A stretch of 64,000 nucleotides of DNA from Candidatus Binatia bacterium (GCA_035631035.1 DASQJL010000096.1:1234-65233), one strand, 5' to 3'; counted from the stretch's first letter, positions 11,613 to 12,378 are shown. Translations and numbers: made by a program. The notes: a model not told the origin generated them from the sequence alone.

Positions 11613-11816
11613 GTCAACCGGCCAAGACAGATGTCGTAAATTCTAGACTACACGCCTAATCCGCTGCACTTCCGCAAGATAACGAATCGCTCCCCGAATC
11701 GTCAATTACAGGCGACAGATCCTGGTCCGTAGAGGTACCCGGGGATCTCGTTTTGCATGCTCGGCATGTGCCTGGCATATAGCAAGTTGTAGCCCCAATT
11801 CGACGGGGCCGTGCAA

Positions 11817-11981
11817 ATGGCACGGCGGCTGCTCAAGCATGTCTCCGTCGAGGCACTCGCAGACCGCGAGCGACGCAAACCGAAAACCCAAACCAACATG
11901 GGGTGTGAGATGGAAGCTCTCCTTCTGATCGCGTTCGTGATTTCGATGTTCGGTGACGGCGGCGGCAAGGCCGGCTGGTAA
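11817..11981 (+). CDS. mini-ORF A: 54-aa (or 23-aa from ATG 11910) single-TM peptide ending GGKAGW
   Basis: Translates to MARRLLKHVSVEALADRERRKPKTQTNMGCE-MEALLLIAFVISMFGDGGGKAGW. Lies in a low-GC island, uses atypical low-GC3 codons, and is paralogous to mini-ORF B in the same frame. Confidence 0.3.
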   Translation: MARRLLKHVSVEALADRERRKPKTQTNMGCEMEALLLIAFVISMFGDGGGKAGW

Positions 11982-12044
11982 GCAGCTCGATCCCAAGCGC
12001 AGCTCCAACGCAGCGGACCCCAACCCAAGAGAGGAGGTGGAACA

Positions 12045-12116
12045 GTGGCAACTCTCCTTCTGATCGCTTTCATCGTGGCGCTCGGAAACACGGACGGAGG
12101 TAAGGCAGGTTGGTAA
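12045..12116 (+). CDS. mini-ORF B: 23-aa single-TM peptide MATLLLIAFIVALGNTDGGKAGW
   Basis: GTG start 7 nt after AGGAGG. Codon-by-codon alignment to mini-ORF A shows synonymous differences (GCG/GCT, GGC/GGA, GGC/GGT, GCC/GCA) with conserved N-terminal LLLIAF and C-terminal GGKAGW, a purifying-selection-like pattern. Confidence 0.3.
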   Translation: MATLLLIAFIVALGNTDGGKAGW

Positions 12117-12378
12117 GCGGTAGCGCCGCAACGTAGCGGCGCCGTCCGCAGGGAAGGGCGAACCCCTGTGGGCGCTTGAGCGGACCGATGGGCCATCGGA
12201 AGTAGCCCCCCTGGTGGCCCGTCGTTTCGCGTTCGGTGGCGGAATGGAATCCAGGGGGGCGGCTGGCCAGCGGCGGGGGCGTATGATACCGTGGCCGGTC
12301 GTCTCCCAGCCACCGAACACGCACCGCGAAAAAGGGGCGCCGCCGTTGAGCAAACGTACCGCAGCCGAAATCGGGCTG

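Follow-up and report, generated by a model that had tools for sequence, protein, structure and literature searches.

Several small membrane proteins with a single helix are described as modulators of sensor kinases, namely MgrB-PhoQ, SafA and ScrA-SaeS (PMC8404706, PMC12239555). Here we describe a locus of related layout in a stretch of 64,000 nucleotides (nt) recorded as Candidatus Binatia bacterium (GCA_035631035.1, DASQJL010000096.1:1234-65233), which is called the window throughout. Between the gene of a sensor histidine kinase and lon, the gene of the ATP-dependent protease La, this window carries two tandem mini open reading frames (mini-ORFs A and B) for hydrophobic peptides ending in GKAGW. 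As in the MgrB-PhoQ type, genes for tiny, probably single-helix proteins stand beside a gene of a two-component system, and their products would presumably act on the sensor within the membrane. In contrast to it, the present locus encodes two co-evolving copies of 18-28 amino acids (aa) compared with the 47 aa of MgrB, shows no sequence relation to it, and has an invariant C-terminal pentapeptide and a sigma-54-type promoter. In the PilA-PilS-PilR system, transcription of pilA starts at a sigma-54 promoter that PilR activates, and it is by its hydrophobic N-terminus that PilA is sensed by PilS within the membrane. The likeness to our locus would lie in the combination of a kinase, an NtrC-type activator, a sigma-54 promoter and a hydrophobic product that possibly feeds back on the kinase. 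However, the peptides described here lack a prepilin leader (G/FTLIE) and are far shorter than pilins, and no pilus genes are found nearby.

We favour the reading that the locus specifies an inducible pair of membrane mini-proteins, produced from an autonomous sigma-54 unit and having a kinase-family sensor as partner, and we regard this as probable, though well short of certain. Both mini-ORFs were found as the first-pass annotation of the window had described them, with starts 135 nt apart and in one frame. When each peptide was searched against the window with tblastn, the other copy was the sole match (E ~2e-6 to 8e-6), the rest having E >=0.1; likewise, no second copy of the region or of the peptides and no transfer RNA genes were found in the 64 kilobases (kb). 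Compared codon by codon in the window, A and B differ by 5 synonymous and 10 non-synonymous changes, the start codon left aside. The earlier remark that their codon usage is atypical was borne out, GCT, GCA, GGT, ACT and CTT each amounting to 1-7% of the synonymous codons in the long ORFs. The 30 long ORFs of the window end in TGA (16) or TAG (14) and never in TAA, and both mini-ORFs use TAA.

A homology search with a fusion of A and B (46 aa) matched five proteins in the databases (46-63 aa), among them 'hypothetical protein VE326_10085, Candidatus Binatia bacterium', which corresponds to ORF A with ATG 11817 taken as its start. Neither the kinase nor the 56-aa ORF had a record of identical sequence, the start codons being different. 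The contigs of the five proteins (L001-L005) include copies of the locus that were assembled separately and stem from at least two samples, and also two diverged relatives. A genome scan was then based on the first 400 residues of Lon, the peptides not being used in the query, and gave 21 close loci with 73-97% identity, nearly all of them labelled Candidatus Eisenbacteria (Candidatus Eiseniibacteriota). Two tandem mini-ORFs with a GKAGW-stop end were present in 16 of the 20 loci that had usable upstream sequence, and the distance from the ORF B stop to lon was 218-260 nt in these Lon-anchored loci. Metagenomes were scanned for two GKAGW-stop tails 130-160 nt apart, and 44 of the 45 contigs obtained were real. 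The sole false positive, a 39-nt minisatellite on a 43%-GC contig (L082, 3340-3760, reverse strand) that reads '...GGKAGW*' four times by chance, was excluded. In total, 62 loci were collected, each with exactly two copies; 50 of the pairs and 92 of the peptides (18-28 aa) are distinct. The lon loci of distant phyla (Calditrichia, Christensenella, Deltaproteobacteria; L027-L038) had no comparable mini-ORFs in front of the gene. Both the homologous peptides and the conserved synteny for which the first-pass annotation had proposed to look were found in abundance. The small-protein family is real, previously unrecognised and, as far as tested, limited to one phylum.

Signals of translation accompany both mini-ORFs. 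In essentially all loci GAGGTG or GGGGTG stands in front of ORF A, its end 3-5 nt from the ATG, while ORF B has a GGAGGTG-type ribosome-binding site in every locus; in the window this is GAGGAGGTG, which ends 5 nt upstream of the GTG. In the 18 loci that were found independently of the peptide pattern, GKAGW forms the tail of all peptides (36/36), and in these tails all four Ala codons occur and the first Gly uses four as well. The mini-ORF stops of the same loci are TAA in 32/36 and TAG in 4/36, but never TGA. The Ala(-3) codon of the mini-ORFs is often GCT, a 4% codon in the long ORFs of the window. Summed over all comparisons of A with B within the same genome, 103 codon differences are synonymous and 61 non-synonymous. 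At L009 the two peptides are identical and their genes show 6 synonymous differences, and at L010 there are 9 synonymous differences and 1 non-synonymous one. With the tail excluded, A and B of one genome share 68% identity on average, compared with 42-45% for orthologues of different genomes, and by this measure the two copies evolve in concert. Since the synonymous sites have diverged, this does not merely reflect very recent gene conversion, and the peptide sequences are held alike. The proposal that the mini-ORFs are paralogues under purifying selection was thus upheld, synonymous changes outnumbering non-synonymous ones. A start with a Shine-Dalgarno sequence, a conserved frame and a synonymous excess, as looked for in small-protein genes, are all present, and on this comparative evidence the mini-ORFs are real translated genes and not chance ORFs.

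Other parts of the initial description did not extend to the relatives. The frame shared by A and B in the window is not kept, as the stop-to-stop spacing is 125-162 nt and often not a multiple of 3. The CAACG(C/T)AGCGG segments said to follow both ORFs are out of register (27 and 13 nt past the stops) and not conserved, and a duplicated 135-nt unit with related flanks was not confirmed, since similarity outside the ORFs reaches only chance level. The peptide-coding stretch is less folded than its own shuffles (z = +1.9), and this unstructured coding region, together with the preference for TAA, may be read as signs of high expression.

All peptides share one layout. They open with Met-(Ala/Glu)-Ala-Leu and continue with an apolar run of 11-18 residues (median 14), which a hinge rich in Gly and Pro (0-8 residues; GDGG, GNPDG, TLPPPG and others) connects to the terminal GKAGW-COOH. 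Most peptides have no basic residue other than the invariant Lys, and the tail corresponds to Lys-x-x-Trp. The apolar run and a mean grand average of hydropathy of 1.24 support the early description of hydrophobic, helix-type peptides, and these are most likely single-helix membrane mini-proteins, to judge from their composition. No match was found in Pfam and NCBIfam for the two peptides of the window (E up to 10) or for the 56-aa extended form of ORF A, nor in Pfam for 35 family members searched individually (E up to 1), so that none of these belongs to the MgrB family by this search. Similarly, PADLOC and PHROGs gave no match for the two window peptides and two peptides of relatives, and a profile of a 40-peptide alignment found nothing significant in the PDB, where 2n4k (enterocin HF) matched with E = 1.3.

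Peptides that are short, very hydrophobic and free of a signal peptide, encoded in tandem as near-identical copies each with a ribosome-binding site, would also suit a membrane-damaging pair that depolarises the cell's own membrane or kills competitors, in the manner of type I toxins, phenol-soluble modulins (PSMs) or leaderless bacteriocins. Sigma-54 promoters are tightly off before induction, as such a product would demand, and GGKAGW also stands near the end of the class IIa bacteriocin enterocin HF (...NLTTGGKAGWK; PDB 2n4k), where it ends the membrane-inserting C-terminal half (PMC5041338). This likeness to class IIa bacteriocins is a motif-level match (E = 1.3), however, and the present locus has no YGNGV domain, no double-glycine or other leader, and no immunity or transporter gene. 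In class IIa bacteriocins, the Trp of the GGKAGW region sits at the membrane interface. The type I toxins Ibs, TisB, Ldr and Hok are likewise hydrophobic peptides of 18-30 aa and sometimes encoded in tandem, but here no antisense RNA gene was identified, the locus is fixed and syntenic, the strong ribosome-binding sites are exposed and not occluded, and the promoter is of the sigma-54 type; no conserved opposite-strand element was noticed, although an antisense promoter may exist. The staphylococcal PSM-alpha operon and RNAIII/delta-toxin resemble our locus in their tandem ORFs of ~20-26 aa without signal peptides, their own ribosome-binding sites, a two-component switch and an ORF within a structured RNA. 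PSMs, however, are amphipathic, have a dedicated ATP-binding cassette exporter and are controlled by Agr, whereas the peptides described here are uniformly apolar, neither amphipathic nor cationic, with no exporter nearby. The unit occupies a fixed syntenic position phylum-wide and is neither patchy nor mobile, no conserved antisense, immunity or exporter gene accompanies it, and PADLOC and PHROGs are silent on it; we regard a membrane-damaging function as improbable.

The presence next door of a kinase with an extracytoplasmic dCache_3 domain could also suggest that the peptides are secreted signals or precursors of ribosomally synthesized and post-translationally modified peptides, GKAGW being the released or modified core that this kinase senses. 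An M16 peptidase gene is located 4.3 kb upstream, and short hydrophobic pheromones with an active C-terminal part exist in Gram-positive bacteria (SHP/Rgg). Against this, the neighbourhood contains no conserved modification enzyme, exporter or peptide permease, the peptides have no recognisable leader or cleavage motif, and a phylum-invariant core behind a fast-evolving 'leader' is the reverse of the usual pattern, which makes such precursors very unlikely.

The first-pass annotation had considered that ORF A might be extended upstream to 54-56 aa (MQMARRLL...). This extension is not coding, and the upstream frame is occupied by a sigma-54-type promoter. We draw this conclusion because L005 has a 2-nt deletion between the promoter and ORF A and because many relatives have an in-frame stop right before the ORF A ATG. 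As gene callers start inside the gene's own promoter, ORF A is misannotated at 46-63 aa. The GG (-24) and GC (-12) elements of the promoter are exactly 10 nt apart and fit the consensus TGGCAC-N5-TTGCW, to which TGGCACGGCGGCTGCT is the sole match on both strands of the window. The promoter is essentially invariant in 48 distinct relatives, in which TGCAAATGGCACGnCGnCTGCT does not vary at all, and in the 59 fetched loci the consensus occurs once per locus and always at the peptide unit. From this conservation we infer that the promoter depends on sigma-54 in vivo. Further upstream, the motif and the position of block 1 are conserved in 47 distinct upstream regions whereas its flanks are not, and the block is a candidate for activator sites, of either an enhancer-binding protein (EBP) or a response regulator. 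The counterpart of block 2 in several lineages is a clean inverted repeat, TGTCGTCA-N5-TGACGACA, and the conserved box closer to the promoter possibly serves a bending protein or a second regulator. As predicted from these elements, the upstream layout is that expected of an enhancer-dependent promoter. The transcript would begin with a hairpin, present in most lineages but not all, in which CTCGC/GCGAG is replaced by CCCGC/GCGGG in L011 and L026.

At the other end of the unit, ORF B is followed by two hairpins, H1 and H2, and a terminator-like element. The GGCGAA columns of the H2 loop are invariant in 31 aligned sequences and their neighbours nearly so, and the H2 stem shows compensatory changes in 5/6 pairs, with 97.8% of cells paired. 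The helix of the terminator-like element comprises 16 pairs (92.7% of cells paired, compensatory changes in 6 pairs) with the stem consensus GGGCCAyCrG...CyGGTGGCC, followed by a U-rich tail. Taken jointly in this 31-sequence alignment, the two helices have 94.1% of cells paired compared with 38-50% when the 3' partners are slid, compensatory changes affect 11/22 pairs, and none of 500 shuffles reaches the observed values (0/500). This dedicated alignment was made after RNAalifold, applied to the whole spacer from ORF B to lon, had given only a partial structure, the lineages being unlike one another. In 39 distinct versions of the element, the energy of the 10-bp core lies between -15 and -21 kcal/mol and the next 10 nt contain 4-8 T, and the element is kept also where lon does not follow.

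Because the H2 loop is conserved, an additional function at the RNA level is possible, and this could be the principal one if the transcript were a dual-function small RNA (sRNA) that, by way of the H2 loop AGGGCGAAC, a second AAGGCGA motif and its CA-rich tracts, base-paired with targets or titrated an RNA-binding protein, with the peptides as a secondary product. Dual-function RNAs such as RNAIII/hld and SgrS/SgrT are precedents. The invariant GGCGAA on a covarying stem, the hairpins at the 5' and 3' ends, the unit's own terminator and the sigma-54 promoter beside a kinase gene all agree with this. The sigma-54-dependent sRNA genes GlmY, CrcZ and Qrr are located beside their two-component systems (GlrK/GlrR, CbrA/CbrB and LuxO, respectively), and they share with our locus a short autonomous unit with its own terminator next to a sensor-kinase gene, CA-rich tracts and conserved hairpins. 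Those genes are non-coding, however, while here selection acts on two ORFs at the amino-acid level and both have strong ribosome-binding sites. Moreover, in the L014-type lineage a different hairpin without the loop replaces H2 and the peptides are kept. Rfam 15 gave no gathering-score match in 11 loci and only chance-level ones in the window and L026, and a search of the 64-kb window for targets complementary to the H2 loop revealed nothing convincing. We consider a primarily regulatory RNA distinctly unlikely, and this reading does not exclude the favoured one, with which it is compatible.

The boundaries of the intergenic region had to be revised in part. The ORF end of the kinase was confirmed at 11612, but lon does not start at ATG 12379 as first read: its start is TTG 12346 (product MSKRTAAEIG...), the same column being occupied by TTG, GTG or ATG across 18 relatives, while a longer in-frame ORF from GTG 12214 is spurious. 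As lon starts at 12346, the intergenic region is 11613-12345. The low-GC island reported for it holds from 11613 to ~12100 (GC 0.535-0.615 over 11600-12100 in sections of 200 nt, compared with 0.70 in the whole window) but not for 12100-12345, where the GC is 0.65-0.70. Horizontal acquisition of this island found no support, as the whole region is syntenic across the phylum in the order TrmA, a 226-aa secreted protein, the kinase, the pair, lon and three hypothetical genes.

A vector remnant, a misassembly or random ORFs had also been considered, and the 14-nt polylinker match at 11734-11747, with XbaI and SphI sites near it, would agree with such an artefact. The match to GGTACCCGGGGATC is a single one and stops at 14 nt, however, and a match with at most one mismatch occurred in 6/100 shuffles. 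The 14-mer occurs in L001, L002 and L005, which were assembled separately and represent at least two samples, but not in the relatives L003 and L004, and we judge it to be a coincidence in a non-conserved spacer. No similarity was found between 11613-12345 and 72,556 plasmids. With copies in separately assembled contigs and a unit conserved in 62 loci, an artefact or chance origin is scarcely credible. In one joint estimate with the mechanism proposed below, we hold it probable that the 'island' is native, vertically inherited regulatory DNA, made up of one autonomous unit and then the lon promoter region.

The pair occurs in three genomic contexts. In the first, found in 39 loci (13 genome and 26 metagenome loci), the order is kinase, pair and lon; in the window, no response regulator gene adjoins the kinase at 9765..11612. 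In the second, a TrmA-like gene precedes the pair and lon, and there is no kinase (L039, L065 and probably L054). In the third (L047, L069), the pair stands between a diverged, catalytically degenerate paralogue of the kinase and a FadL-like outer-membrane gene with other genes for secreted proteins, and lon is absent; L070 agrees with these two downstream, its contig lacking the upstream side, and L051 and L076 likewise carry the pair without lon. The promoter, the 5' hairpin, both ORFs, H2 and the terminator stem are retained in all three contexts, while the sequence past the terminator differs, and the peptide unit (~11613-12233) looks like an autonomous transcription unit. In L047 (3-1037) and L069 (1-798, counted on the reverse complement of the stored locus), the paralogue lies on the strand of the peptide ORFs and is ~30% identical to the kinase. 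The His of its H-box is replaced (AVRE vs ASHE), its ATP-lid is deleted and it has no Pfam match. It appears to be a pseudo-kinase beside which the peptide unit was retained. In four loci (L018, L019, L020 and L024), both the peptides and the kinase are missing upstream of lon, and lon is adjoined by a divergently transcribed gene whose product has an N-terminal signal peptide.

The frequent adjacency of lon and the helix-plus-pentapeptide architecture reminiscent of LarA make Lon the main alternative partner. To our knowledge, the gene for LarA is not adjacent to lon. LarA of Caulobacter is a heat-shock-controlled Lon activator of 89 aa that consists of a helix and a conserved unstructured C-terminal pentapeptide (...V-x-V-H) through which, being transferable, it acts together with the helix, and Lon recognises hydrophobic/aromatic sequences (PMC10665427). 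By analogy, GKAGW could be a degron or docking tag, and the peptides, induced by stress, could activate Lon allosterically, tether it to the membrane or serve it as decoy substrates. Further support comes from the presence of lon downstream of the pair in most loci, the three kinase-less ones included, at a distance that varies little (218-260 nt), and from the weak U-tract in the lineage of the window, which would permit co-transcription with lon. The likeness to LarA is one of architecture only, namely a functional tail after a helix in a small protein, whereas the peptides here are of ~23 aa, strongly apolar and without sequence similarity to LarA, and their terminal Trp follows Gly-Lys-Ala-Gly. 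The promoter is of the sigma-54 type and not of the heat-shock type. In addition, the unit carries a terminator of its own and lacks nothing in the lon-less L047, L069, L070, L051 and L076, and the synteny of the whole region means that the adjacency is perhaps inherited and not functional. We regard peptides directed at Lon as unlikely, yet as an alternative to be taken seriously; a Lon substrate or regulator was among the functions first suggested, and is possible.

The order of peptides, hairpin and lon also resembles the layout of tnaC-tnaA, and the mini-ORFs might accordingly be attenuator leader peptides, with translation or stalling at the GKAGW-stop setting termination versus read-through into lon. 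The invariant tail lies at the stop codon, which is almost always TAA, the terminator-like hairpin follows 59-102 nt downstream, and lon is ~225 nt away. However, the unit also precedes unrelated genes, the distance and sequence between ORF B and the terminator vary, with the independent H1 and H2 in between, and no conserved antiterminator complementary to a terminator arm was seen. Two ORFs with conserved hydrophobic bodies would be left unexplained, and lon retains a promoter-like block even without the peptides, all of which renders attenuation a very doubtful function. This block, at 12234-12345, is more strongly conserved than any other DNA of the kinase-lon interval; it includes TATGATACCGTGGCC, and the part enclosed by its stem is GGGGGGCGGCTGGCC...TATGATACCGTGGCCGGTCGTCTCCC. 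As its core 'GGGCGTGTATGAT' is kept upstream of lon in loci without peptides, the block probably comprises the lon promoter and the 5' untranslated region or leader. The region 12110-12360 folds with z = -5.1, which is due to the lon-proximal block and not to the peptide region. A related GGGGGGCGGC...GCCGCTCCCCC hairpin, with no Rfam match, is found past the terminator in the non-lon loci L047, L069 and L070.

Elements of several readings could finally be joined in a connector between signalling and proteolysis, in which a sigma-54-induced dual-function sRNA yields membrane micro-peptides that, beside the dCache (pseudo-)kinase, recruit or switch Lon through GKAGW-COOH; to this we give little credence.

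We return to the favoured reading of an inducible pair of membrane mini-proteins with a kinase-family sensor as partner. This partner is preferred because of the association with the kinase and because a pseudo-kinase paralogue adjoins the pair in a second context, and it would most likely be the neighbouring sensor, the peptides forming a feedback connector by analogy with MgrB-PhoQ or PilA-PilS. Of the functional options offered by the first-pass annotation, a small membrane regulator of the adjacent kinase is the most plausible, though unproven. As a possible mechanism, an unlinked NtrC-type activator, probably phosphorylated by the dCache_3-HAMP kinase encoded just upstream, would open the otherwise silent sigma-54 promoter. 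A burst of stable small mRNA with hairpins at both ends and two strong ribosome-binding sites would then provide a doubled dose of near-identical peptides, whose apolar helices would embed singly in the cytoplasmic membrane with Lys and Trp at the interface. The invariant tail might contact a conserved partner, which is only a guess, while the fast-evolving helices of both copies would be kept matched to one another. The GC-rich stem and U-rich tail would end transcription before lon or, in the lineage of the window, perhaps only attenuate it.

Several observations weigh against this reading. Searches of the window and of all fetched loci revealed neither rpoN (RpoN-box) nor an EBP gene (GAFTGA motif). 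The loci L039, L065 and L054 carry the pair and lon but no kinase, and adjacency is weak evidence for a link to either the kinase or lon because the whole neighbourhood is syntenic. A run of 14 apolar residues is short for a helix spanning the bilayer. A simple terminator scanner did not call the 3' element, which has loops of up to 11 nt and interrupted U-tracts, and for this reason we call it terminator-like; moreover, the tail of the window, GUCGUUUCGC, belongs to the weakest class with 4 T in 10 nt, so that read-through into lon is possible. The conserved H2 loop is not accounted for. The metagenome matches were preselected for GKAGW twice, and only the 18 pattern-independent loci inform on its invariance. 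Finally, the organism is known from metagenome bins alone and the whole case is built on sequence.

Genes so short escape standard annotation, and the supposition that the mini-ORFs had been overlooked owing to their small size proved correct: ORF A appears in databases as a 'hypothetical protein' of 46-63 aa. The comparative genomics presented here validates a small-protein family from a phylum without a cultured member. Its conserved signals are unusually rich, consisting of a sigma-54-type promoter, candidate activator sites, two ribosome-binding sites, RNA hairpins and a terminator-like element, and together with the invariant C-terminal pentapeptide and the two copies evolving in step they should make heterologous reconstitution and testing easy. 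Should their target be the sensor or Lon, the peptides would extend the list of micro-proteins that modulate signalling or proteolysis, and if they connect the two, an extracytoplasmic signal would be tied directly to regulated proteolysis across an uncultured phylum. Even an ordinary answer would leave a corrected annotation, in which ORF A and lon begin at the right codons and ORF B is no longer missing, and a pattern for searching the family. The coordinates of all features are given in Table 1.

Table 1. Features of the kinase-lon region in the window, with coordinates counted from its first letter.
Feature	Coordinates	Strand	Remarks
Sensor histidine kinase, dCache_3-HAMP-HisKA-HATPase_c	9765..11612	+	Pfam domains; gene call in L001
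Upstream block 1, helically phased GACA-type repeats, GTCAACC..AGACAGATGTCGTAAA..AGACTACA	11613..11653	+	~-205 to -165 from promoter
Upstream block 2, ATCGTCAATTACAGGCGACAG	11696..11721	+	~-115 from promoter
Polylinker-like 14-mer, GGTACCCGGGGATC	11734..11747	.	Identical to KpnI-SmaI-BamHI polylinker stretch; XbaI 11642, SphI 11755 nearby
Conserved box, TCGTTTTGCATGC	11748..11761	+	CGCAAAtTGCA in most relatives; ~-60 from promoter
Sigma-54-type promoter, TGCAAA-TGGCACGGCGGCTGCT	11812..11833	+	TGGCACGGCGGCTGCT at 11818-11833; predicted transcription start ~11845
5' hairpin of predicted transcript, GTCG..CTCGC-AGACC-GCGAG..CGAC	11847..11874	+	Inverted repeat
Shine-Dalgarno sequence of ORF A	11900..11905	+	GGGGTG here, GAGGTG in most relatives; 4 nt before ATG
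Mini-ORF A	11910..11981	+	23 aa, MEALLLIAFVISMFGDGGGKAGW, TAA stop; orthologues in 62 loci; purifying selection
Inter-ORF spacer, C/A-rich, G-poor	11982..12044	+	Carries Shine-Dalgarno sequence of ORF B, GAGGAGGTG, 12031-12039
Mini-ORF B	12045..12116	+	23 aa, (GTG)MATLLLIAFIVALGNTDGGKAGW, TAA stop; orthologues in 62 loci; purifying selection
Hairpin H1, GCGCCGC-AACGTA-GCGGCGC	12123..12142	+	Just past ORF B stop; lineage-variable
Hairpin H2, conserved apical loop A-AGGGCGAAC	12141..12175	+	Loop 12154-12163; covarying stem
Terminator-like element, GC-rich stem and U-rich tail GUCGUUUCGCGUU	12184..12233	+	Stem 12184-12199 with 12211-12226
Lon-proximal conserved block	12234..12345	+	Stem GTTCGGTGGC/GCCACCGAAC around GGGGGGCGGCTGGCC..TATGAT(12282-12287)ACCGTGGCCGGTCGTCTCCC; outside peptide unit proper
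lon (ATP-dependent protease La)	12346..14925	+	TTG start; Pfam; gene call in L001; usual downstream neighbour

The same unit, together with a Lon that is 73-97% identical, occurs under other NCBI labels in L006, L008, L010, L021 and the record of the window itself. These labels are Binatia, Omnitrophota, Bacteroidota, Limnocylindrales and Latescibacterota, the rest being Eisenbacteria, which suggests that the divergent organism names belong to mislabelled metagenome bins. The 226-aa protein of the syntenic neighbourhood is encoded at 9067-9747, its gene ending 18 nt upstream of the kinase. It has a signal peptide and a weak CarboxypepD_reg-like domain, its gene is co-conserved with the kinase in most loci, and it may be a periplasmic partner of the sensor.

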